Origin: Candidatus Poribacteria bacterium
Lineage (GTDB): Bacteria > Poribacteria > WGA-4E > WGA-3G
Reading direction: 5' to 3'
Length of the DNA: 64,000 nucleotides
Assembly: GCA_965214095.1 (NCBI GenBank)
Contig: OZ243938.1
Span: 1,856,001-1,920,000 of the forward strand
Part shown: piece after piece, positions 18,652 through 30,535 of the stretch
Numbering within the stretch: the first letter of the stretch is position 1
Layout of the letters: each line of letters begins with the position of its first letter
The notes under the pieces: generated by a model
The model's database searches: none
Told to the model about the DNA's origin: nothing
The model's input: only the letters and a program-made list of their open reading frames with translations
Made by a program: the position numbers and the translations under genes

Positions 18652-20643
18652 CTAAAATGCACGTATAACTTTTGCAACGAAACGTTGGGTAAATTCTGAT
18701 GCATTCGGATCACCAAGGATGATAAAAAAGTCTGTACCAGCATAACCAGATCGACGTAACGCGAAATAGATATTCAGATTATTTGCTTGCCAAATTAAAC
18801 GGCTTCCAATACTTAAGGCAGGTGTGAAGTCATAGCCGAGTGTTAGAATCTGTTGGTAACGTCTCTCAAAATGCCATTGTATACTGGAGGAAAGTCCTGC
18901 TGTTATTCCATAAATACGAAGATTCAGGTTTCCACTAACACGATGTATCCGCTCATCCGCACGTTCACCCCAACTATAACCAACACTAACATTGTTAAAC
19001 TGATCCGAGGAACGGGCTTTTAATCTGATGTTAATTACACTATCAGTGAATTCTTGGAATCGTCCGCCATACCAACCCACAGAAAACCCATAGTCACTAT
19101 GTGTCGAGAAGTTTGAAAAGACAGAGATGTCACGCTGAAACACCTCACCATCATAATTGTTAGCCGCGATTCCATTTGCACCAATGAAAACACTACGGAT
19201 GAATCCCTGTCGCCATTCGTTTGAGATAATGCCTTCTATGCCTCCGCCACGAAGACCGGTGAACGGTTGATATCCGAGGTCATTTACGAAATCTGGATCC
19301 ACAGAATACCCGAATAACACTGATTGAAATAGCGAACCGTTGTATCTTAAATACACATTTCCGGTTCTACCATCTGATTCACCTTTCCAACTTTGAGTGA
19401 AGCTGGATTCCGCTGAAAACTTACCGCGTCTTACACTCCCTGAAAGATGACCTACACTGTTTATATCCGTGTTGGGACGATGGTGTGATAGGAACCCCCC
19501 GATAATGTGAGAAGTTGCCGTTATGGATTGTTTCGCACGTAGAATAAAGTTCTGATTGTTGCGATGATATGTCCCTAACGTGCCGACTGAGGTGTGTTTT
19601 CCTAATTTTCCAAAGAGTTTTAACCCTCCATCCATATCCATTATCCTGCGTGAATAGAAAAGGGTTCCAAGATGGTAGACATTTCCACCTTCGGAGAAAA
19701 ACGGACGACGGTCATCCACATAACGTTCACTGTAAGAGAAGTCAATGCTTTCCACAGATTGCTCAATGTTATCAAAATCTGGATTTGCTGTCCCGATAAG
19801 ACGTAGTTGTGGCGTAATCTCATAGCGTAGGTCTCCACCTGCACGAGCCGTATATTTCCTGTCATCCAGTGCTGTTTCACTGATACCGCCAATCAGATAT
19901 GGCAGGAACTTTAACTCACGTTGTCGCTTCGGTGGTAACACATCAATCCAGTGTCCATCGTTTTCTCGAAATTCTCGAACACCTAAATTACACCACCATG
20001 ATCGCTCTCCGGTTCGTTGTTGAAATCTATCAAGATTGATACCCATCCGAATAGGTTGTGTTGTATCAGGATAATCCAAAATCTGCCATGGGATTTGCAT
20101 CTCTACAACCCAACCGTCATCCACAATCTTGGCTGCAGCATTCCAAAGTCCAATCCATTCGCTCTTTGCCGCACGTCCGGTGGCGAGATGCGCGTATTTT
20201 GTGCCAATTGGATTGGTCATGAAGAAATTTCTATCAGAAAATTGATGTGTGTGGAATGGGTCAAGACTAAAAGAAACCCAATCATCTCCTCCAATTCCCG
20301 TTTGATCCTTTGTTTGACGCGCTACAATTTTATCTGGCATATCATCATATAGATGAAGTCCAACATAGATGGCTGCGTCATCATAAACGAGCCAACCGAT
20401 AGATTGATTCTTTGCTGGTTTTTCAGTGCGTTGGTCGGTGAATCCGATGGCTTGTGGAGCATCTTGCCAACAAGCATCATTGAGCACACCATCAATGGTG
20501 GGGACGTGTTCTATTTTGACTGCGGAAAGTTCTTTCTGGACGGTTTGTGTGGTTTGTTCTGCCGTAGTTAGCAAGTTTATGTGTAATATTAGCAATAGTG
20601 TGATGAATAATAATTGTGTGTATTTATTCTGTAGTATGTTCAA
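18652..20643 (-). CDS. CBM9-like sugar-binding domain + outer-membrane beta-barrel (DUF5916-like)
   Basis: PTIDGVLNDACW..DDGWVVEMQIPW domain, TANPDF..E.RPFF.EG motif, C-terminal F; GGAGG before TTG 20643. Confidence 0.75.
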   Translation of the reverse strand: MNILQNKYTQLLFITLLLILHINLLTTAEQTTQTVQKELSAVKIEHVPTIDGVLNDACWQDAPQAIGFTDQRTEKPAKNQSIGWLVYDDAAIYVGLHLYDDMPDKIVARQTKDQTGIGGDDWVSFSLDPFHTHQFSDRNFFMTNPIGTKYAHLATGRAAKSEWIGLWNAAAKIVDDGWVVEMQIPWQILDYPDTTQPIRMGINLDRFQQRTGERSWWCNLGVREFRENDGHWIDVLPPKRQRELKFLPYLIGGISETALDDRKYTARAGGDLRYEITPQLRLIGTANPDFDNIEQSVESIDFSYSERYVDDRRPFFSEGGNVYHLGTLFYSRRIMDMDGGLKLFGKLGKHTSVGTLGTYHRNNQNFILRAKQSITATSHIIGGFLSHHRPNTDINSVGHLSGSVRRGKFSAESSFTQSWKGESDGRTGNVYLRYNGSLFQSVLFGYSVDPDFVNDLGYQPFTGLRGGGIEGIISNEWRQGFIRSVFIGANGIAANNYDGEVFQRDISVFSNFSTHSDYGFSVGWYGGRFQEFTDSVINIRLKARSSDQFNNVSVGYSWGERADERIHRVSGNLNLRIYGITAGLSSSIQWHFERRYQQILTLGYDFTPALSIGSRLIWQANNLNIYFALRRSGYAGTDFFIILGDPNASEFTQRFVAKVIRAF

Positions 20644-20670
20644 TTTGTGTCCTCCATGATGTATGTACTC

Positions 20671-20706
20671 AAAAAATGCCGAATGCACAAAACAGCATTC
20701 GGCATT
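20671..20706 (-). terminator. Rho-independent terminator after ECF gene 1
   Basis: 12-bp stem AATGCCGAATGC/GCATTCGGCATT followed by a T-run on the minus strand. Confidence 0.6.
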
Positions 20707-20721
20707 AAAACTAAGTGTTTC

Positions 20722-22422
20722 TTACTTCTGTCCCAAAACCTTCAGAAATTCCGGATCATCCCAAACATCCGAAAATTCAGAAGTCTCAAGGAAAGACGGG
20801 TAATAGGAATCCTGATAATTATAAGAAGCAACCGCATATTTACCTTGCGCAATCTTTAAATAATGCAAAGTCTTCTCGCGATCTTTCTCAGATGCCCAAA
20901 TACTCAATGCCAGCATGAAATAACTATACTCATTATAATTTCCCAAATCTACAGCAACTTGGAGAAACCGTTTCGCTTCAACATACTTCTGTGACCATAC
21001 CAGACAACACCCAACATCGTGAACCGCCCAAATGAGTTCATAAGTATTTACAGGAAGATTCAAATCCAGTTTCTTCAACTCTAATTCCAAGAACGTGTTC
21101 AATTCCGTATAGACCTGACTAAAACGATCCCAATCTTCCTGTTCTTTATATAACAACAGACGATTCGTACACTTAGCTAACCAGAATCTAAAATAGGTTT
21201 TCCAACCCGGTTTTCCCAAAGCACTTTCCAACTTGTCTAATTCAATTAGTGCTTCTTCTATCCTGTTATATTTTCGTAATATTTCTGCTCCAAATTGCAG
21301 AAAATCACAACGGCTATACTTACTCACTTCAGGATTCTCTAAGCGTTCAGAGGCATCTCTATAAAGTTTTATCCAATCATCAATACGACCTTCTGTCGTC
21401 CAACATCCAGAAGTATTAAGATTAGAAACAATCCTCAAAACATATTTTTCCGCATGCTTGCATGCCCAATGGTAAAGACGCGTCTGTTCGTCTATGGCTT
21501 CTCGTTTTCTACCACAAAATGCAAGACTATGCACTAACGACTTATGCGACCAGTAACGTTCAGTTTCATCCGATACGTCTTCCATATATTTGTTGAGTAG
21601 AACTACCCGTTTTTCCTGACCAAGTTTGCCCATATAAGGGTATATATCATCAACCAAGAGATGTGCCAACTCAGATGTGATTTCGCCTTTGAGGGCAGTA
21701 TCAATTTCCATGTCCGCTTCTTTAAGTATATCGTCTCTGGATGTTGGATCAGAATTTATCTGTTCCTTGAATGAATTGAACTTGCTGTGAATTTCCTCTA
21801 TTTGATTCATTATGTTCTCCTTCAGATTATCTGATAATTGGAAATGACCGAAGTACTCTTGTACCAAGAACATTTGATCTGTTTGTAGACGTTTTCGTGC
21901 ACGTTGCAGGCGACTTGTAATTGTATTTACCGATACTCCCATGAATTCACTGATCTCTTTCGTTGACATTTCATCAAGATAGTAAAATGTTACAATTTCG
22001 CGTTCATTATCGGGAAGTGTTTCCAGTAGCTTATTTACAAGTTCATGGGAATACTCAGTTCTCTCTATCACTCGCTGTTCTGACATATATTGTGTATAAT
22101 AGGATTCTTCTATTTCTTCCAGATGTGTGTTTTCCAAGGATTGCATCACTGGCTTTTGTTTACGTATCCAATCAATGCAAAGCCGATCTGCAATGACATG
22201 GAGCCAACCAGCAAATTGATTTGGATCTTTGAGTGTTGATAATTTTTTGTATGCCTTAAGAAACGTATCTTGCACAATCTCTTCAGCATAGTGAAAATCC
22301 TGAATCTTCCGCCATGCATGTGCATGAACGCTTTTTTGATACTTGTCGACCAAAATGCCAAACGCAGTGTCGTCACCCGATAAGACTTTCCTTATGAGTT
22401 CAACATCGTCTTCTTTTGCCAC
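20722..22422 (-). CDS. ECF sigma factor fused to ~360-aa TPR-like domain (paralogue 1)
   Basis: AEEIVQDTFLKAY, FAGWL, EISEFMGVSVNTITSRLQRARKRL; helical C-domain ending EFSDVWDDPEFLKVLG. Confidence 0.9.
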   Translation of the reverse strand: MAKEDDVELIRKVLSGDDTAFGILVDKYQKSVHAHAWRKIQDFHYAEEIVQDTFLKAYKKLSTLKDPNQFAGWLHVIADRLCIDWIRKQKPVMQSLENTHLEEIEESYYTQYMSEQRVIERTEYSHELVNKLLETLPDNEREIVTFYYLDEMSTKEISEFMGVSVNTITSRLQRARKRLQTDQMFLVQEYFGHFQLSDNLKENIMNQIEEIHSKFNSFKEQINSDPTSRDDILKEADMEIDTALKGEITSELAHLLVDDIYPYMGKLGQEKRVVLLNKYMEDVSDETERYWSHKSLVHSLAFCGRKREAIDEQTRLYHWACKHAEKYVLRIVSNLNTSGCWTTEGRIDDWIKLYRDASERLENPEVSKYSRCDFLQFGAEILRKYNRIEEALIELDKLESALGKPGWKTYFRFWLAKCTNRLLLYKEQEDWDRFSQVYTELNTFLELELKKLDLNLPVNTYELIWAVHDVGCCLVWSQKYVEAKRFLQVAVDLGNYNEYSYFMLALSIWASEKDREKTLHYLKIAQGKYAVASYNYQDSYYPSFLETSEFSDVWDDPEFLKVLGQK

Positions 22423-22466
22423 AGACTTCCTCCTTTTGGAATAGATTTATCTTTTTATTATTTAAT

Positions 22467-22493
22467 GACGAATTTTTTATCAGAAAACGTGCA
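22467..22493 (-). promoter_or_regulatory. Putative ECF autoregulatory promoter TGCAC-N18-CGTC
   Basis: Same motif at 24604-24630 upstream of paralogue 2. Confidence 0.5.
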
Positions 22494-22600
22494 TTATACT
22501 AAAATTTATTGGATTATAGAGAATGTCCACAAATATGAAAAAATAAAATTGCAACAATTATTGACAATACATACTCTGAAAACGGGGATGATTACGACTT

Positions 22601-22832
22601 TATAGTGAAATGTAAAAACACGTTCACACTCCCCGGTAGATGCGGTTTCCTAACCAATGCAGAATGCCATACGGGAATGCCTAAAGAAGCATGCGCGTGT
22701 GACATGCTCCATGATTCATACCGTTGATTTGGCGCATTCTGCCTGACTATGAGACTGAACTGGATCCTACGCGAGAACCTCTATGAAAGTATTTGGCACA
22801 AAGTAGGTTCAGTTAGGAAACCGAACCTACCG
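22601..22832. repeat. Composite REPIN (two inverted GTAG-type REPs, conserved spacer, internal insertion)
   Basis: CGGTAGATGCGGTTTCCTAACC ... GGTTCAGTTAGGAAACCGAACCTACCG; spacer GAGAACCTCTATGAA..ATTTGGCACAAA shared with the 25044 and 27208 copies. Confidence 0.7.
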
Positions 22833-22863
22833 TCACGGGGAAACTGCATTAACCAATGATTGA

Positions 22864-24561
22864 TTACTTACCCAAAACCTTCAGAAATTCTGGATCATCC
22901 CAAACATCCGAAAATTCTGGCATCTCAAGGAAAGTAGGATAGAAAGAATCCGGATAATTAAGGGTACGATCCACGAACTTGTCCTGAGCGATCTTCAAAT
23001 ACTTTAAAGTCTTCTTACGATCATTCTCAGATGCCCAGATACTCACTGCAAGCATGAAACAACTATGTTCATTCCAATCTTCCAAATCGACAGCGATTTG
23101 TAGAAACCGTTTTGCCTTGTTATACTTCTTTGACCATACCAAACAACACCCTATATTATGAGAAGCACAAAAAAACTCGTATTTATTTAGCGGAAAGTTT
23201 GCATCCAGTTTTTTCAACTCCAATCTCAAATAAGTCTTAAGTTCCGCATAGACTTGATTAAAACTAGTCCAATCTCCGAGTTTACTATACAACAGTAATC
23301 GGTTCGTTCTCGCAGCTAACCAGAATCTAAAATAGTTATCCCAACCGGGTTCGTCCATAGCACGTTCCAACTTTTCTATCTCAAGAAGTGCGTCATCAAA
23401 ACGGTCATTAACTCGTAATACCTCAGCACCGATTTTTAGGAATTTGCAACGAGAGTAGTCACTCACCTCTGGTTTTTCAAGATGTTCAGATGCCTCATTA
23501 TAAAGTTGAAGCCAATCATCAATACGTCCTTCAGCTTTCCAACATTTAGCAGTGTTTAAATTGGAAATAATCCTCAAAACATATTTTTCTGCATGTTTGC
23601 AAGCCCAATGATAAAAACGTGTTTGTTCCTCAATAGCCTCGCTATTATTCCCAAGAATTGCCAGAGCATTGACTAACGACTTATGTGCCCAGAAACATTC
23701 TGTATCATCTTCTAAATCATCCATATACTTACGGAGTAAGGGCACACGTTTTTCTATACCCGGTTTACCCATATACGGGTATATCCCATCAACCGCAAGA
23801 TGCACCAACTCAGATGTGACACCGTCCTTGAGTACAGCGTCAATCTCACTGTCTGCTTCCTTAACGATATCCTCTCTTGATGCAGGATCGGACTTCATCT
23901 GTTCCATGTATGAATTGAACTTGTTGCGAATTTCTTCTAAATGACTCATGATGTTCTCCTTCAGATTATTTGTTGATAATAAATGACCAAAGAATTCTTG
24001 ATCCAAGTGTCCTTGATCTGTTTGTAGACGTTTGCGCGCTCGTTGGAGTCTGCTCGTGATTGTATTCACCGATACCCCCATGAATTCACCAATCTCTTTC
24101 GTTGACATTTCGTCAAGATAGTAGAGTGTTACGACCTTGCGTTCATTCTCTGGCAAACTTTCCAGAAGTTTCTGGACAAGTTCATGGGAATACTCAGTTC
24201 TCTTTATCATTTGCTGTTCTGACCTGTAATGTGAATAAGAGGATTCCTCAATTTCCTCCAAACGTACGCTTTCTAAAGATTGCACCTCAGGTTTTTTCTT
24301 TCGTAACCAATCAATGCAAAGATGATTTGCAATGGTATGAATCCATCCAGCAAATTGATTTGGATTTTTGAGTGTCGGTAGTTTGTTGTATGCCTTAAGA
24401 AAGGTGTCTTGCATAATATCTTCCGCATAGTGGAAATCACGAATTTTCCGCCATGCAAGGGAATGAATGCTCTCTTGATATTTTTCGACCAAGATGTTAA
24501 ACGCAGAGTCATCACCCGATAAGATTTTGCGAATCAAAACTACATCGTCATCTCTTTTCAT
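22864..24561 (-). CDS. ECF sigma factor fused to TPR-like domain (paralogue 2)
   Basis: Same motifs; closely similar to paralogue 1. Confidence 0.9.
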   Translation of the reverse strand: MKRDDDVVLIRKILSGDDSAFNILVEKYQESIHSLAWRKIRDFHYAEDIMQDTFLKAYNKLPTLKNPNQFAGWIHTIANHLCIDWLRKKKPEVQSLESVRLEEIEESSYSHYRSEQQMIKRTEYSHELVQKLLESLPENERKVVTLYYLDEMSTKEIGEFMGVSVNTITSRLQRARKRLQTDQGHLDQEFFGHLLSTNNLKENIMSHLEEIRNKFNSYMEQMKSDPASREDIVKEADSEIDAVLKDGVTSELVHLAVDGIYPYMGKPGIEKRVPLLRKYMDDLEDDTECFWAHKSLVNALAILGNNSEAIEEQTRFYHWACKHAEKYVLRIISNLNTAKCWKAEGRIDDWLQLYNEASEHLEKPEVSDYSRCKFLKIGAEVLRVNDRFDDALLEIEKLERAMDEPGWDNYFRFWLAARTNRLLLYSKLGDWTSFNQVYAELKTYLRLELKKLDANFPLNKYEFFCASHNIGCCLVWSKKYNKAKRFLQIAVDLEDWNEHSCFMLAVSIWASENDRKKTLKYLKIAQDKFVDRTLNYPDSFYPTFLEMPEFSDVWDDPEFLKVLGK

Positions 24562-24659
24562 GAGACATCCTCCTATTACAAACTATTTGTCCCTTATATA
24601 AATGACGAAACTTTGATCAGCAAACGTGCAATATGACAAAAATTTATTGACTTATTATA

Positions 24660-24932
24660 CTATAGTTTGGACAGTTTTTTGAGGACTTGAACGGTGCTCT
24701 GGACAAGGAGCATCACAGTCATCATACCTATTTCTTGAATGATACACCTGTCGCCCCGCTGGGGCTTGCATTGGTCGTGGCACATTTTTCTATACACATT
24801 CCGCCCGCTGGGGCTGCTCATTTTGATGTTTTCACACTTTTTCATCAAAGTATTATCCTATCCAAAACTCACAATATATTGCAAATGCCAGCAATATCAG
24901 TATGTAACCAAGAGAAATTGTCCAAACTATAG
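24660..24932. mobile_element. 273-bp MITE with 8-bp target duplication
   Basis: IRs CTATAGTTTGGACA / TGTCCAAACTATAG; TTATTATA duplicated at 24652-24659 and 24933-24940; two internal CCCGCTGGGGCT-containing repeats. Confidence 0.85.
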
Positions 24933-24975
24933 TTATTATAGAGAATGTCCACAAATATGGAAAATAGAATTACAC

Positions 24976-25205
24976 TAAATTGATGCCTATCGTGCGGTAA
25001 AGGCACCGCACGATAAGCATCAATTTAGCGTCCTTCCAGGGCAGGTAGGTTCGGTTTCCTAACCGAGCCGAATCTTCCCACGAAAACCTTTATGAATGCC
25101 CTTGGCACAAATCAGGTTCGGTTAGGAAACCGAACCTACCGACATGGGATAATAGCGTAATTCTACTTAAATTGATACCTATGGTGCGGTAAAGGCACCG
25201 CACCA
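24976..25205. repeat. REP cluster: long hairpin, REPIN (25044-25141) and second hairpin
   Basis: CTAAATTGATGC..GTGCGGTAAAGGCACCGCAC..GCATCAATTTAG hairpin, repeated at 25168-25205; inverted REP pair between them. Confidence 0.75.
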
Positions 25206-25222
25206 CCGAAGCTGCTGGCATG

Positions 25223-26917
25223 CTATTGCCCAAGAACTTTCAGAAATTCTGGATCATCCCAAACGTCCGAGAATTCAGGTGTTTCAAGAAAGGCAGGATA
25301 GTACCTATCTTCATTCCAATAGTCTAGAATATAGTCCGATGCAAGTTTTAAATTTTGCAACGTCTTTTCCCGATCCTTCTCGGTCTCCCAGATTGCCACA
25401 GCGAGCATAAAGTAAGCCCAATCGTTTTTGTTCTGTAAATCAAGAGAGATCTGTAGAAAACGTTTTGCATCCTCATACTTCTTGACCCACACCAGACAAC
25501 AACCAACATCGTGAGCAGCCCATATAAGATCACTAACATTTACAGGATAACCAGCCTTATGTTTTTCTACTTCAAGTTCAACAAACCTTTGGAGATCCGC
25601 ATGCACTTGATCGAAACGATCCCAGTCCTCCTGTTTTCCGTAAATTCGCAGTCTATTCGTTCTCACTGCCAACCAGAACCGAAAATAATGTTCCCAATCT
25701 TGGTTTTTGTTAGCACTTTCCAATTTTTCTAAACCAAGAAGTGCCTCATCAAAACGGTCAAAGGAACGTAATACTTCTGACCCGATTTGCAGGAAATCGC
25801 AACGTGAGAAGTCACTTACTTCAGAATTATCTAAACGTTGAGAGGCTTCACCGTGAAGTTGCATCCATTCATCAATACGGCCTTCCTGTTTCCAACAGTC
25901 AATAATTGTCAAATTAGAAAGTGCTTCCAACACATATTTATCCGACATGTGCTTGCAAGCCCAGCGGTAAAGACGTATCTGCTCTTCGATCGCCTCTCCG
26001 TTTCTTTCCAGGGCAGGGAAACTATGAACTATCCGATGTTGCGACCAGAAACGTTCCGTATCATCTGCTGCAACATCTTGATACCTACGGAGTAAAGCAA
26101 TCCGTTTTTCCATGCCAACTTTGCCCATGTGCGGGTATATATCATCAACTACAAGATGGACCAGCTCAGGTGTGAGTTCACCCTTGAGTGCCGATTCTAT
26201 CTCAACATCAACTTCCCTAAGAACATCTTCACTCTTAAGAATATCTCCATCTGAGAGAGGGAAAGATTCCACATACTCCATATATGTAGCGAACTTGCTA
26301 CGAATGTCTTCCATTTTTCCTAACATAATTATTTCTCCTTGATGATCAGCCACATTATAAAAAATCGTGTGTTCCTCACTTTGTAACCGCTTACGTGCAC
26401 GGTGGAGCCGACTCTTTACCGTGTTCGGTGAAACCCCCATAGTTCTACTGATATCTTCACATGTCATTTCTTTCAGATAGTGAAGTGAAACAGTGGTACG
26501 TTCACTAGCGGGTAACTTTTGAAGGAGGTGTTTGACAACTTCACATTGCCTTTCACTCACAATTTCTCTTTGCTGATTTTCGTGATACTGTGTATAAGCC
26601 AATTCCTCTAATTCCTCTGCGGGCATCTCATCTAAAGATTGCGTTGGAATTCTCTTTTTTTCAAACCAAGCGAAACAGTGCCGCGCCGCTATTACATAAA
26701 GCCATCCTACAAAACTATCCTGATTTTTCAAGGTATGGAGTTTCTGATAAACCCGGAGGAATATATCTTGTGTGATTTCTTCAGCGATGTGGTAGTCACC
26801 GATTTTCCGCCAAACATAAGTGTGAATTGGCTTTTGGTGTTTTCGCACAAGCGTATTGAAAGCAGATTGGTCACCTTTCAATATACGTTGAATCAATTGT
26901 GCATCATCGTTTTTCAT
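25223..26917 (-). CDS. ECF sigma factor fused to TPR-like domain (paralogue 3)
   Basis: AEEITQDIFLRVY, MGVSPNTVKSRLHRARKRL; same C-terminal EFSDVWDDPEFLKVLG. Confidence 0.9.
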   Translation of the reverse strand: MKNDDAQLIQRILKGDQSAFNTLVRKHQKPIHTYVWRKIGDYHIAEEITQDIFLRVYQKLHTLKNQDSFVGWLYVIAARHCFAWFEKKRIPTQSLDEMPAEELEELAYTQYHENQQREIVSERQCEVVKHLLQKLPASERTTVSLHYLKEMTCEDISRTMGVSPNTVKSRLHRARKRLQSEEHTIFYNVADHQGEIIMLGKMEDIRSKFATYMEYVESFPLSDGDILKSEDVLREVDVEIESALKGELTPELVHLVVDDIYPHMGKVGMEKRIALLRRYQDVAADDTERFWSQHRIVHSFPALERNGEAIEEQIRLYRWACKHMSDKYVLEALSNLTIIDCWKQEGRIDEWMQLHGEASQRLDNSEVSDFSRCDFLQIGSEVLRSFDRFDEALLGLEKLESANKNQDWEHYFRFWLAVRTNRLRIYGKQEDWDRFDQVHADLQRFVELEVEKHKAGYPVNVSDLIWAAHDVGCCLVWVKKYEDAKRFLQISLDLQNKNDWAYFMLAVAIWETEKDREKTLQNLKLASDYILDYWNEDRYYPAFLETPEFSDVWDDPEFLKVLGQ

Positions 26918-27088
26918 GCTTCAGCTCCAAAACATTTTGTCATTCATAATGTTAAGATAGGTAGTAGAAGCGGCGGGGTTGCATAAAATGCAAAAATCAG
27001 GAAAAATATGGAATTATGGTAAGAAAATATGAGGATGGTTCATAAGTCACCATTGTCCGATATTCATTAAAAGTAGTAGGCACGCTCA

Positions 27089-27348
27089 TGAAGATTAAGA
27101 AATAAATTGGGTAATTTCCTTGAGATGTCTGTCAGCATACGCGTTAGGTATGCTGAATTGGTTGGGAAACCGCACCATAAGCGTCAATTTAGCATCCTTC
27201 CAAGTACCGGTAGGTTCGGTTTCCTAACCGAACCGGTTTTGTGCCAAATACCTTCATAGAGGTTCTCGCATAGGTTCCGTGCGGTTAGGAAACCGCACCT
27301 ACCGGGTTTGAGAAAATGAGAATTACCCGTTTAATAAATTAATCTTCA
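27089..27348. mobile_element. TG...CA MITE inserted into the loop of a REP, itself containing a REPIN (27208-27304)
   Basis: IRs TGAAGATTAA..GGGTAATT / AATTACCC..TTAATCTTCA; flanks GGCACGC-TCA | TCC-GCGTGCC. Confidence 0.7.
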
Positions 27349-27444
27349 TCCGCGTGCCGCACCCTTAACTCTGATGGAGTACAGGAAACTGATTTGTCAA
27401 ACTCATGTTCTTGAAAGTATTATGCGAAATGTTTTGAATGATTA

Positions 27445-28082
27445 TTAGAGCACAATCTCTTTATGCGTAATGCTGGAATGAAATTCACGGATACTGTCAA
27501 CACATCTGAGCAGCATTTCATCGCTGAGTGCGAACACCTCAGAAAATGTCCATGTGCTTTCAACCGTGTCAAGAATTCGTTGATTTGGTAAGACAATAAC
27601 TGAATCTGCATTTTCTTGAAGTTTCTGCAATCCCAGTTCTGCATTTTCAATGCACTGTTCACTCTCAAAATTAAAGGGTAAAGTGACAATAGCAACAGTA
27701 AAAACTCCTTGCTCTCGCGAAAGAGATGCAATCACAGGTGATGCACCTGTCCCTGTCCCACCACCCAAACCGGCTATGACAAAAAAATATCTGCGTCTTT
27801 CACAATTTGCTGGAGTTTGTCATAGTTCTCCTCAGCAGCTAATCTGCCTCTTATCGGATATCCCAGACAACCAACACCTTGTGTGGTATTAACACCGATT
27901 TGTACCGGTTTTGCATAGTCGCATTTTTCGAGTGCTTGTTGATCAGTATTAACAACGTAGCATTCAATGTCAGTCATACCTGCTTCTGTCATCCGTTTAA
28001 CAGCATTGCCTCCCGCACAACCAACACCGATAACTTTGATTATGTCGCGTGTGTTTTTGGATTCATCTTTATTAGATGTCAT
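27445..28082 (-). pseudogene. FtsZ-like protein, GTPase domain only, with a frameshift in a T7 run at 27781-27787
   Basis: IKVIGVGCAGGNAV, NTDQQAL, GGGTGTG tubulin signature, VTLPFNFE; split over two frames; no C-terminal domain. Confidence 0.8.
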
Positions 28083-28294
28083 AACTACACCTTCAATGAT
28101 TGAACCCAAATGTATTAAGCAAAAGTGCCAGAGATATTCTTAATTAACGTGAGTTCGGTATATTTGTTGTAGGATGGGTTGAGGCACGAAACCCAATTTC
28201 TTTCTTTGATAGCGGGTTACATGTTGTGTTGCGTGCCTCAAGCCAACCTACAATTTACGTCATTTTGCTTATGCCGATCTCACACTGAAGTAAC

Positions 28295-29110
28295 TCATTT
28301 CGGTTCTAAATATTTTAGTGGACTTTCAACAATGTATTTACCAGACGCTTCAAGAAAGTGCTGGACAAGATAGACATGTCCTCCACCAATAATCAACAGA
28401 ATTCGTTCATTATTAGACTCTGTTATCCGTGTCAGGTTGACAAAGATTTTGAGATTGCGCGTATACCATTGATGTCCAACCCAATTCGCACCAGGATATT
28501 GTTCTCCTAATCCAATCTGTGCCATCTGCAAGTATAGCCGATGTTCAGCACTTCTACCTTCCGGTTGATTGCCGCGTATGAACATGTCAATAAGTGGTTC
28601 ATATTCCTTTGGTTCTATCCAGACTCTACCGTCTTCCTGTTCATTAAATTCTACATCCTCACCAGAATAAAAGTCCTCTACACTGGATAAAAGGTGTTCT
28701 TGATTATGTTCATTTGCGAACTTATCAATATCCAACAAATTGGAGTCAAAATCTTCTGGAAAAAACGGGTCTTGTTTTGGAAAATAATCAACACAGAAAA
28801 TCTTTGAGTGTCCCATCTGTTTTGCTAACCGAAAACCGAGTTGGTCACCTTCACCCCGTTCAAGTTCGTAAGTGCCGTTAAGATAGCCTTGATAGTTCTC
28901 TTGTGCTTCAGCGTCAAATCTCTGGTCTATTTCAAGTGCAACTTTTGTAGGACGAAACGGTTTGAGTGCCTCAACCATTTGTTCTATCTCACTTTGCCGT
29001 TTAGGTGAAAGCACATCATCCATTCTGTAATTGTATGCGTCCAATCCAGGATTAGCAAAGTGTCCACTCCCAAGTATTATGATTGTTGGTTTTGTTTTAT
29101 CTTGCATCAA
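28295..29110 (-). CDS. DUF5694-like protein (paralogue B)
   Basis: ILGSGHFANPG..RQSEI..FRPTKVALE..WYTRNLKIF..IIGGGH. Confidence 0.75.
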   Translation of the reverse strand: MMQDKTKPTIIILGSGHFANPGLDAYNYRMDDVLSPKRQSEIEQMVEALKPFRPTKVALEIDQRFDAEAQENYQGYLNGTYELERGEGDQLGFRLAKQMGHSKIFCVDYFPKQDPFFPEDFDSNLLDIDKFANEHNQEHLLSSVEDFYSGEDVEFNEQEDGRVWIEPKEYEPLIDMFIRGNQPEGRSAEHRLYLQMAQIGLGEQYPGANWVGHQWYTRNLKIFVNLTRITESNNERILLIIGGGHVYLVQHFLEASGKYIVESPLKYLEPK

Positions 29111-29913
29111 TTTATATCCTCCGATTTTATATATTTTAGTGGACTTTCAATGATATAATCCCCTGAATCCTCAAGAAATTGCTGAAGCAGAAAGACAAGT
29201 CCAGCACCGATTATCACAAGTATCCTATCCTCAGTAGATTCTGTGATGCGCGTCAGGTTGACAAAGACTTTAAGATTTCGTGGATACCAGTGATTTCCAA
29301 CCCAATTCGCACCAGGATATTGATTTCTTATGCCGACTTGGGACATCCGCAAGTATGACTGATGATCAGCGCGCCTTCCTTCAGGTTGATTATACCGTAT
29401 ATACATGTCTATGATTGATTCGTACTTTTTAGGTTCAATCCAGACTCTTCCATCCTCCTCTTGGTGTGTTTTTCCTTCGGGAATATCAAAATCCTCCATT
29501 TTAGGAAGAAGGTGTTCTTGGTTATTTTCCATGGCGAATTTGTCTATATCTATCAAATTTCGGTCAAGGTCTTCTGGGAAGAATGGGTCATGCTCAGGAG
29601 AAAAATCTACACAATATACTTTTGAATGTCCCATCTCCTTTGCCAAACGATAGCCTATCTGATCATGTTCCCAACGTTTGAGATCATACGTACCATCAAC
29701 ATAATCTTGATAGTTAACATTAATTTCAGGTGCAAACCTTTGATCTGCTTGAAGTGCAACTTTGGTAGGGCGAAATTCTTTGAGTTGTGATACCAATAGT
29801 TTGATTTCACTTTGCCGTTTAGGGGCAAGTACATCATCCATTCTTATATTGAATGCATCCTTACCGGGATTTGCTAAATGTCCGCTGCCGAGTATCATGA
29901 TTGTCGGTTTCAT
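29107..29913 (-). CDS. DUF5694-like protein (paralogue A)
   Basis: Same motifs; ATGA overlaps with both neighbours. Confidence 0.75.
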   Translation of the reverse strand: MKPTIMILGSGHLANPGKDAFNIRMDDVLAPKRQSEIKLLVSQLKEFRPTKVALQADQRFAPEINVNYQDYVDGTYDLKRWEHDQIGYRLAKEMGHSKVYCVDFSPEHDPFFPEDLDRNLIDIDKFAMENNQEHLLPKMEDFDIPEGKTHQEEDGRVWIEPKKYESIIDMYIRYNQPEGRRADHQSYLRMSQVGIRNQYPGANWVGNHWYPRNLKVFVNLTRITESTEDRILVIIGAGLVFLLQQFLEDSGDYIIESPLKYIKSEDIN

Positions 29914-30446
29914 ACTTCTGTCTCCTCCATTAATCGATTTAATATCTCGCGCAATTGTTCACGAGCACGGAATAACATTGATTTAACACTGTTTTCAGGA
30001 CGTTTCAATTCCTCTGCGATTTGTTTGTAACTCATTTCCTCAAATTCTCGCATGATGATTGTTGATCGCATGGCAGGTGGTAATTCTTCAATCGCTTGCC
30101 GCACTAACTGCTTAAGTTCCAGTTTGATAGCAATTTCATCTGGGGTTGGATTTGTCTGGTATGAATAAGAATGCAGTAGCATTTCAAGTGTTTCACCCTC
30201 TTCCTCATCTAAATGCACCTGAAACTTACGGCGTTTGAGTTGGTTGAAACAGAGATTTTGGACACATTTCAGCATCCATGAGTGGGCTGTTTCCACCCTT
30301 AATGTTGTGCGATGTTCCCATGCTTTTATGAAGGTTTCTTGTGCCATGTCTTTTGCATCTTCACTGTTTTTGAGTAGATAAAAAGCATGACGATATACTT
30401 TATCTTGATGTTTTCGGATTAGTTCAAGGAATTTGTCTTCTGTCAT
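29910..30446 (-). CDS. ECF sigma factor
   Basis: DAKDMAQETFIKAW, MSYKQIAEEL..VKSMLFRARE; GGAG before ATG 30446. Confidence 0.9.
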   Translation of the reverse strand: MTEDKFLELIRKHQDKVYRHAFYLLKNSEDAKDMAQETFIKAWEHRTTLRVETAHSWMLKCVQNLCFNQLKRRKFQVHLDEEEGETLEMLLHSYSYQTNPTPDEIAIKLELKQLVRQAIEELPPAMRSTIIMREFEEMSYKQIAEELKRPENSVKSMLFRAREQLREILNRLMEETEV

Positions 30447-30474
30447 TTGTAACTCCGTGCGATTTGAGTTAACG

Positions 30475-30504
30475 CTACTACAAACAAGATGCAGAATTGT
30501 TGCA
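30475..30504 (-). promoter_or_regulatory. Putative ECF promoter TGCAAC-N16-TGTAGTA
   Basis: Near-identical motif at 35693-35721 upstream of the paralogous ECF gene. Confidence 0.55.
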
Positions 30505-30535
30505 TCTTTTTTCATATTAGTGAAATTTATATTAT

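Follow-up and report, generated by a model that had tools for sequence, protein, structure and literature searches.

Three tandem genes on the minus strand of a 64-kb window from the genome of a sponge-associated Candidatus Poribacteria bacterium (5.25 Mb in 4 contigs; the window is the whole stretch of DNA analysed) code for extracytoplasmic function (ECF) sigma factors fused to a C-terminal domain of the tetratricopeptide repeat (TPR)-like type, and each of them contains an internal Shine-Dalgarno (SD) sequence followed by an in-frame ATG at the join of the two parts. From the comparison of homologous sequences across the genus, we consider it probable that this internal start is maintained by selection and that a sigma-less TPR-like protein is made from each of the three genes. 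The full-length proteins are encoded at 20722..22422 (paralogue 1; 566 aa, GTG start), 22864..24561 (paralogue 2; 565 aa, ATG start, 69% identical to paralogue 1) and 25223..26917 (paralogue 3; 564 aa, ATG start, 55% identical to paralogue 1 and of the clade B type described below).

The N-terminal parts have the make-up of ECF (group 4) sigma-70 factors, with regions 2 and 4 present, region 3 absent and the ECF superfamily model matched. The Pfam models Sigma70_r2, Sigma70_r4_2 and Sigma70_ECF match all three proteins, the first two covering residues 24-90 and 128-179 of paralogue 1 and about the same positions in paralogues 2 and 3, and the NCBIfam model of the ECF superfamily, TIGR02937, reached 98 (paralogue 1) and 88 bits on the N-terminal part at a cut-off of 42.9. 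None of the NCBIfam equivalog models exceeded its cut-off for the fusion proteins, and close relatives carry the database name "RNA polymerase sigma factor". For the C-terminal part of about 360 residues, no Pfam family was found at E ≤ 0.01, and NCBIfam likewise gave nothing.

The internal signals were located by reading the minus strand, which bore out the claim of an initial annotation of this DNA that an SD sequence and an in-frame ATG follow sigma region 4 in all three genes. Paralogue 1 contains AAGGAG at 21822-21817, spanning the codons of K201 and E202, then the spacer AACATA and the ATG at 21810-21808. The corresponding element of paralogue 2, AAGGAG-AACATC-ATG, lies at 23961-23947 (AAGGAG 23961-23956, ATG 23949-23947), and that of paralogue 3, AAGGAG-AAATAATT-ATG, at 26340-26324 (AAGGAG 26340-26335, ATG 26326-26324). 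The spacers measure 6 bases in paralogues 1 and 2 and 8 bases in paralogue 3, every ATG is in frame with the long open reading frame (ORF), and the three ATGs follow the end of the Sigma70_r4_2 match by 25, 25 and 19 codons, respectively. The proposed nested products, all on the minus strand, extend over 20722..21810 (362 aa, starting at ATG 21810; a sigma-less TPR-like protein), 22864-23949 (361 aa) and 25223-26326 (367 aa). It had also been noted that the linker peptide of paralogue 3 has diverged and that its hexamer lies in another codon phase, and both points were confirmed: the peptide reads LKENIM in one type and QGEIIM in the other, and the hexamer is read as AAG GAG (K E) in the former and within CAA GGA GAA (Q G E) in paralogue 3. 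Two sequence properties expected of a nested gene are thereby found together, namely an in-frame start inside a longer ORF with an SD sequence at a working distance, equal to the spacing of the GGAG peak of this genome, and a signal that has been kept beyond the need of the protein sequence.

To follow the signal across the genus, we collected the DNA of full-length matches, which gave 71 stop-to-stop ORFs of at least 450 aa and a set of 67 homologues, 66 of full length and one truncated (464 aa). Besides these three, the genome under study has no copy of the C-terminal domain; 1-4 copies occur in 35 of 36 further genomes of its genus, and the same query found no match in 24 genomes from three other families of the order. 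All 66 full-length homologues are uninterrupted fusions to a sigma domain, which makes the fusion as such a conserved feature. In the alignment column of the internal methionine (M205 in paralogues 1 and 2, M198 in paralogue 3), an ATG preceded by AGGAG occurs in 67 of 67 homologues from 36 genomes, as AAGGAG in 65 and as GAGGAG in two of them, with 5, 6 or 8 bases between the SD sequence and the ATG. A 68th fused copy, obtained by an independent route (L074), reads AAGGAGAACGTCATG.

The homologues fall into two clades, about 53% identical to each other. Clade A (41 sequences including the truncated one, with paralogues 1 and 2) shows the peptide L-K/E-E-N/D/T-I/M-M, and its hexamer is read as AAG GAG, 6 bases before the ATG. 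Clade B (26 sequences, with paralogue 3) shows K/Q-G-D/E/A-(I)-I/M/L/K-M, and there the hexamer is shifted by one base against the reading frame (A AAG GAG A) and separated from the ATG by 5 or 8 bases. The linker just upstream of the motif is variable and differs between the clades by an indel of 7 residues. Because the same hexamer is read in different phases in clades A and B, two different peptides have been written over one nucleotide motif.

The initial annotation had named codon usage for Lys or Gly-Glu as the explanation that would do away with the SD conservation, and had called for a look at synonymous sites over the family. Genome-wide, lysine is encoded by AAG in 30% and glutamate by GAG in 25% of cases, AAGGAG is the spelling of only 7.9% of the 4777 K-E dipeptides, and AAAGGAGAT that of 12% of the 221 K-G-D tripeptides, so codon usage does not account for the motif. 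Column by column, within one alignment in which all columns share one tree, the codons of the motif are frozen and the neighbouring ones vary. Among 40 clade A sequences, the SD lysine is the sole one of 18 conserved lysine columns with 100% AAG, and the SD glutamate the sole one of 32 conserved glutamate columns with 100% GAG; the flanking Leu, Asn and Ile codons vary freely, and no more than 22 of 254 degenerate conserved columns are without any synonymous change. The clade B motif is equally rigid, its SD glycine being GGA in 26 of 26 sequences, the sole 100% GGA column among 11 conserved glycine columns; the K, G and D codons are all invariant, and 37 of 290 columns show no synonymous change. 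Judged by these comparisons, the internal SD sequence and ATG are not a product of chance or of codon usage.

The surroundings of the internal ATG also resemble those of a true initiation site. The 16S rRNA of this genome carries the canonical anti-SD tail GGATCACCTCCTTTCT, and upstream of crudely called gene starts, GGAG peaks at a distance of 10-12 bases, which is the same as at the internal sites. Inside coding DNA, AAGGAG is under-represented, with 1051 occurrences observed compared to 1397-1454 in five synonymous permutations. We calculated the folding of 60-base windows centred on the internal ATG and obtained a mean of -4.8 kcal/mol vs. -9.45 kcal/mol for all windows of these genes; when all windows of a gene are ranked by structure, the ATG window is in the lowest 10% for 41 of the 66 genes and in the lowest 25% for 57 of them, a comparison that involves related sequences and an A/T-rich linker and is supportive rather than an independent proof. 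The 5' starts and internal starts of the same genes were then set side by side. Clade A genes begin with GTG in 37 of 40 cases and have an internal ATG in 40 of 40, with mean SD duplex energies of -10.5 at the 5' site and -9.7 at the internal site. Clade B genes have a 5' SD sequence of 4 bases in 26 of 26 cases and an internal one of 6-7 bases in 26 of 26, with duplex energies of -8.4 and -9.6, respectively. As far as sequence features define it, the internal site is no worse than the 5' one.

The structure of the 362-aa nested product was predicted with AlphaFold 2 (AF2) from a 69-row alignment, yielding an all-helical model of 19 helices with a pLDDT of 92.1 and a pTM of 0.87. The nearest solved chains by VIA-align were Pins (Z 17.2, root-mean-square deviation 7.9, 295 aligned residues), the TPR domain of LGN (16.8), Rap proteins (13.6-14.9) and domain III of MalT (13.6), and the best Foldseek E-value for the domain was 8e-4; because middling Z scores are common for helical repeats, these structure scores give the fold class only. 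A protein atlas also pointed to TPR clusters, as leads only. The model describes the C-terminal domain as a TPR-like solenoid of stacked antiparallel helix pairs, and the label "TPR-like" given to it by the initial annotation therefore holds for the fold; by sequence it does not, Pfam giving no match on the C-terminal domain encoded in the window itself. The membrane anti-sigma factor DdvA appeared at rank 49 of the VIA search (Z 11.5), via its helical-repeat part, and no anti-sigma family of Pfam or NCBIfam was found on the C-terminal domain of the fusions. The full-length AF2 model reached a pTM of 0.61, with low confidence at residues 90-121 and in the linker at 192-196. A complex prediction for sigma residues 1-190 with the TPR-like domain, run with separate alignments and without controls, scored 0.00 against a mark of 0.32, which has no bearing on binding either way.

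A search with the 362-aa part among 1.84 billion representative proteins gave 101 relatives, some of which are free-standing proteins of 358-372 aa (P0123, 40% identical, P0124, P0125, P0127, P0130, P0138 and P0144). These align from their own residues 10-16 to residues 3-18 of the nested product, so the internal methionine matches their N-terminus within about 10 residues. One of them, P0124, reaches the Pfam family TPR_12 with 31.6 bits (cut-off 30.1). Among ten longer relatives, Pfam identified eight as sigma fusions (P0121, P0136, P0143, P0155, P0172, P0175, P0187 and P0202). A scan for free-standing loci with a 4-sequence alignment gave nine from Latescibacterota, Gemmatimonadota, Paenibacillus/Bacillus and Poribacteria and one from an uncultured bacterium; none of them has a sigma gene directly upstream, and in one Poribacteria locus, a free gene is followed by a fused gene. 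By sequence relationship, the domain is a module of its own that became linked to ECF sigma factors, with fused relatives both close and distant in sequence. The patterns of a further metagenome scan, based on an alignment of P0143 and P0155, stemmed from the sigma region, and none of the 80 retained loci matches the query beyond residue ~195; these are consequently generic ECF genes without bearing on distant sigma-TPR fusions.

One free-standing Poribacteria paralogue (L071 2911-4086, L072 2842-3690, L074 2842-4017) has two candidate starts of its own. The upstream ATG, preceded by the SD sequence GGGAG, adds a hydrophobic leader of 30 residues (MNWKSIVTIF.GLF.CLITF...), and the second ATG, preceded by GAGGGAG, is at the point matching the nested start of the fusions. 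From its sequence, this paralogue may likewise be translated from both starts, one form being anchored and the other soluble.

The internal signal is shared by other sigma fusions of the same genome. The Sigma70_r4_2 model matches at 54 places, and at 38 of these the frame stays open for at least 150 codons past region 4; 28 of the 38 fusions contain an SD sequence of at least 5 bases with an in-frame ATG within 80 codons of region 4, mostly exactly 5 codons past it (AAGGAGGAAACAATG and variants). As a control, the equivalent stretch of 788 non-ECF genes of at least 500 aa contained a 5-base SD sequence with an in-frame ATG in 13 cases and a 6-base SD sequence with such an ATG in none; among the ECF fusions, of which the crude gene set contains 37, these signals are present in 27 and 22, respectively. 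The ECF window is somewhat longer than the control window and the fusions are paralogues, so that a Fisher test on these counts exaggerates the contrast. According to Pfam searches on examples, the partners besides the TPR-like domain are a membrane helix with a BNR/sortilin-like propeller (about 1000 aa, the largest family), WD40, a beta-clamp and FtsZ/tubulin, and the same internal signal is found at the joins with all five kinds of partner.

The fusion at G000:C1:2353772-2355505 (L159 273-2006) joins an ECF sigma factor to a DNA polymerase III beta-clamp that is complete, with all three Pfam clamp domains, and its GGAGGT-ATTGGA-ATG is located approximately where the clamp match begins (residue 209). 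At G000:C1:4552364-4554121 (L157), an ECF-like sigma factor is joined to an FtsZ/tubulin GTPase with FtsZ_C, with AAGGAG-AACACA-ATG at the join. Elsewhere in the genome there are two more genes each for beta-clamp and FtsZ, which makes the fused ones extra paralogues; for the same reason, we rejected the argument that a fusion representing the only dnaN or ftsZ gene would need a working internal start. The membrane-anchored family comprises about 26 copies, many of them clustered at G000:C1:3.229-3.286 Mb and others dispersed, and consists of an ECF sigma factor, the stretch KEE.MIREAL..FQ.SPNLTENIM, one membrane helix and a BNR/sortilin-like domain of ~750 aa. The "FQISPNLTENIM" of this family and the "FQLSDNLKENIM" linker of the three studied genes are homologous; the SD sequence and ATG are placed at the first of two methionines in the membrane-anchored family and at the second in the three studied genes.

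For the three genes in the window, we propose the following reading of these data. Ribosomes starting at the 5' site would make a single chain of ECF sigma factor and TPR-like solenoid, and ribosomes loading on the conserved internal AAGGAG would begin at the in-frame ATG and make the TPR-like domain alone (361-367 aa), which would be co-linear with the free-standing proteins of the same family in other bacteria. Such an arrangement may go back to the loss of the stop codon that once separated a sigma gene from a TPR gene downstream of it, the downstream ribosome-binding site being kept by selection ever since. The initial annotation had likewise suggested that each gene makes both the fusion and a free isoform of ~360 aa. 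The comparative side of that suggestion stands, with the SD sequence and ATG in 67 of 67 homologues, the frozen synonymous sites, the survival of a change in phase, the low RNA structure and the strength of the internal SD sequence; production of the isoform itself is what we infer from them.

Several observations weigh against this reading. The 67 homologues are related to each other and their counts are not independent events, for which the comparison of columns within the alignment corrects only in part. In several membrane-anchored paralogues, the ATG is replaced by CTG, ATA or ATT, or the SD sequence is missing, and the signal is thus dispensable at least there. The free-standing loci lack a sigma gene directly upstream, which means that the domain is not a dedicated anti-sigma factor by ancestry, and the full-length AF2 model with its pTM of 0.61 is uninformative on docking between sigma factor and domain. 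Finally, contigs from four metatranscriptome runs (X1-X4, available as assembled contigs only, 90-99% alike and derived from relatives of roughly 93% identity) bridge the joins of genes 2 and 3, e.g., records 3 and 7 of X1, although such contigs cannot show starts, strand, level or translation. They leave parts of gene 1 uncovered, a gap to which no meaning attaches.

A first rival is that the SD sequence and ATG are left over from the start of the downstream gene and lie unused, only the full-length protein being made. Because the free-standing relatives start at the same point, the site certainly began as a gene start, and a fossil of a fusion between a sigma gene and its downstream gene, as the initial annotation put it alternatively, is a supported account of the origin. 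As a dead relic, it does not fit a signal that appears to be under selection throughout the genus. The fusion was already in place when clades A and B separated and when the genus, with copies in 35 of 36 other genomes, radiated, and the motif is still there in every homologue, although neighbouring synonymous sites are saturated and the linker has acquired indels; it has outlived a change of reading phase and of peptide in a genome where internal AAGGAG is otherwise selected against. The loss of ATG or SD sequence in some membrane-anchored copies is what decay predicts, and for the three genes studied here we regard disuse as unlikely.

Two further explanations keep the motif in function but change its role. 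The free domain might come from a transcript of its own, initiated at a promoter inside the sigma-coding part, and the SD sequence and ATG, which would be needed here too, would then serve that mRNA. The clade B spacer does read TATAAT, but RNA initiated from a -10 box at that position would begin downstream of the ATG, and the clade A spacers vary at synonymous sites. A scan with the sigma-70 consensus over 20600-27100 showed no excess of promoter-like sites (16 vs. 18.2 ± 4.1 expected), and the only such site near a join ends on the ATG itself. We find an internal promoter rather improbable, and this route would still yield the same free protein. The hexamer could also be kept for another role in RNA or translation, such as a ribosome pause at the domain boundary for folding of the sigma part or a site for a regulator, with the ATG encoding a structurally needed methionine. 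Pausing of elongation at internal SD-like sequences has been proposed for E. coli and has since been disputed. A pause site would suit the position exactly at the domain boundary, where pLDDT dips at residues 192-196, but it requires neither an in-frame ATG at a start-like spacing nor low RNA structure nor a match to the N-terminus of free-standing proteins, and the methionine lies in the first helix among variable residues, all of which makes such a role very unlikely.

If the free domain is made, it may act on the fused sigma factor as an antagonist, buffer or decoy expressed alongside it, a suggestion we put forward tentatively and one close to the "built-in anti-sigma or decoy" of the initial annotation. 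The free TPR-like domain could compete with the tethered one for a ligand or partner, or both could form mixed assemblies, and the output of the sigma factor would then be set by the ratio of the two initiation sites. In ordinary sigma/anti-sigma operons, the SD sequence of the second gene is situated inside the end of the first gene. The arrangement proposed here would resemble these operons in giving two products per mRNA, in a ratio set by two ribosome-binding sites of which the second is embedded in the first coding sequence; it differs from them in that no stop separates the parts, so the covalent fusion is a third species, and in that the partner is not a recognised anti-sigma domain. 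The free domain would take the part played by the co-transcribed anti-sigma factor in ordinary ECF systems. The earlier statement that no anti-sigma gene is nearby proved correct for the spacers around the three genes, as the intergenic regions 22423-22863, 24562-25222 and 26918-27444 hold only short ORFs over repeats.

Extended to the whole genome, the same idea becomes a speculation that we hold with considerable doubt: a general design of Poribacteria, of a type so far undescribed among sigma factors, might consist of ECF sigma factors fused to self-associating or scaffold subunits (TPR solenoid, WD40, beta-clamp paralogue, FtsZ paralogue or membrane-anchored BNR propeller), with the nested start providing the same subunit in free form. 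Tethered and free subunits would form mixed assemblies that retain or release the sigma factor, at a threshold given by the ratio of the initiation sites, one ORF replacing the pair of sigma and anti-sigma genes.

The regions upstream of the three genes contain promoter-like motifs of two kinds. A motif GCACGTTT..N..TTCGTCAT is present on the minus strand before paralogue 1 (22465..22492) and again before paralogue 2 (24602..24629) and is conserved before most clade A homologues, whereas a different one, TGCAACC..N..CCTATCT, is found before paralogue 3 (26955..26983, minus strand) and is conserved before clade B homologues. Most clade A copies follow the consensus ATGCACGTTTTCT..TTTCGTCATT, and clade B copies TGCAACCC..CCTATCTTAAC. 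In the genome studied, the strict clade A motif occurs only before paralogues 1 and 2, and the strict clade B motif before paralogue 3 and at one other match; looser forms give scattered matches genome-wide. We infer from these sequences an ECF-type autoregulation with two specificities, and the motifs suggest that clades A and B recognise different promoters. The possibility that the sigma part is a decaying remnant and only the TPR gene is real was rejected, as the sigma part shows 74% mean column identity with 44 invariant columns, has its own SD sequence and is preceded by the conserved upstream motifs. Paralogue 1 is followed by a terminator-like hairpin at 20675..20706 (minus strand) with 12 pairs and a T run.

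The spacers between the three genes are filled by a palindromic repeat with the core GGTTCGGTTTCCTAAC, partly present as GGTTCGGTTAGGAAACCGAACC, which occurs in the window at 22812, 25048, 25121, 27213 and 2582 and in 298 copies in the genome. The stretch 24940-25156 showed 10-20 times the contig depth of its neighbours in the four metatranscriptome runs, as expected for a multi-copy element resembling repetitive extragenic palindromes (REP) or miniature inverted-repeat transposable elements (MITE). Just upstream of paralogue 3, a broken FtsZ/tubulin-like gene occupies 27445-28109 (minus strand) with ORFs of 111 and 107 aa, and two Tubulin-family matches to it lie in different frames, one with two TGA stops inside. 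Further upstream, a stand-alone ECF sigma gene of 201 aa at 29910-30515 (minus strand) overlaps by 4 bases with the first of two tandem DUF5694 genes (29107-29913 and 28295-29110). By its layout, the segment 28295-30515 looks like an operon with the DUF5694 proteins in the place of an anti-sigma factor.

C-terminal extensions of ECF sigma factors are known, and in some cases they arose by translational fusion with a partner gene (PMC8999054); a fusion origin for the extensions of ECF groups was also described by Casas-Pastor et al. 2021 (PMC7826278). The closest match by description is ECF42, whose TPR extension of about 200 residues is needed for activity and acts via protein interaction (PMC8999054). 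The Poribacteria proteins share with it an ECF core of sigma2 and sigma4 followed by a domain of TPR-like fold in one polypeptide and the lack of an anti-sigma gene nearby; they differ in lineage and in having an extension of ~360 aa from a family without a Pfam model. The passages on extensions in these two papers mention no conserved internal ribosome-binding site and start at the join (PMC8999054, PMC7826278). ECF48, ECF52 and ECF53 are fused to membrane anti-sigma-like extensions and ECF57 has WD40-like extensions (PMC8999054). These groups correspond to the fusions of sigma factor, membrane helix and BNR and of sigma factor and WD40 in our genome, which carry the internal SD sequence and ATG, but the three genes studied here have no membrane helix, and in its treatment of these groups the review proposes proteolytic release and does not discuss an internal start (PMC8999054).

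Nested in-frame genes, for their part, have been described for type I-D and other CRISPR complexes, where the small subunit is translated from within the large-subunit gene (bioRxiv 10.1101/2020.04.18.045682), and internal starts were mapped in E. coli by retapamulin ribosome profiling (bioRxiv 10.1101/520783). These precedents agree with the Poribacteria genes in having a second in-frame initiation site and a short product equal to the C-terminal part of the long one; as with the TPR-like domain, the CRISPR small subunit is also a separate gene in related systems. The CRISPR and E. coli cases, as described in these sources, are backed by protein evidence, whereas the Poribacteria products are predicted from sequence, and none of the former concerns a sigma factor. 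A search of full-text literature returned no paper linking ECF or other sigma fusions with internal translation starts and none on ECF factors of Poribacteria, while the supplementary group descriptions of PMC7826278 may hold more. With a working nested start, the sigma fusions would bring together extended ECF sigma factors and nested in-frame genes, each of them a known kind.

ECF sigma factors with C-terminal extensions are usually treated as one-component regulators consisting of a single polypeptide. If the reading proposed here is true, the regulatory unit would instead be two proteins, in a ratio fixed by two ribosome-binding sites, which would change the modelling, the annotation and the use in synthetic biology of ECF fusions. 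Automatic annotation misses nested starts in fusions completely. The case would also mean that gene fusions can keep the start of the downstream gene as a working nested gene, a pattern seen here for five unrelated partner domains in one genome.

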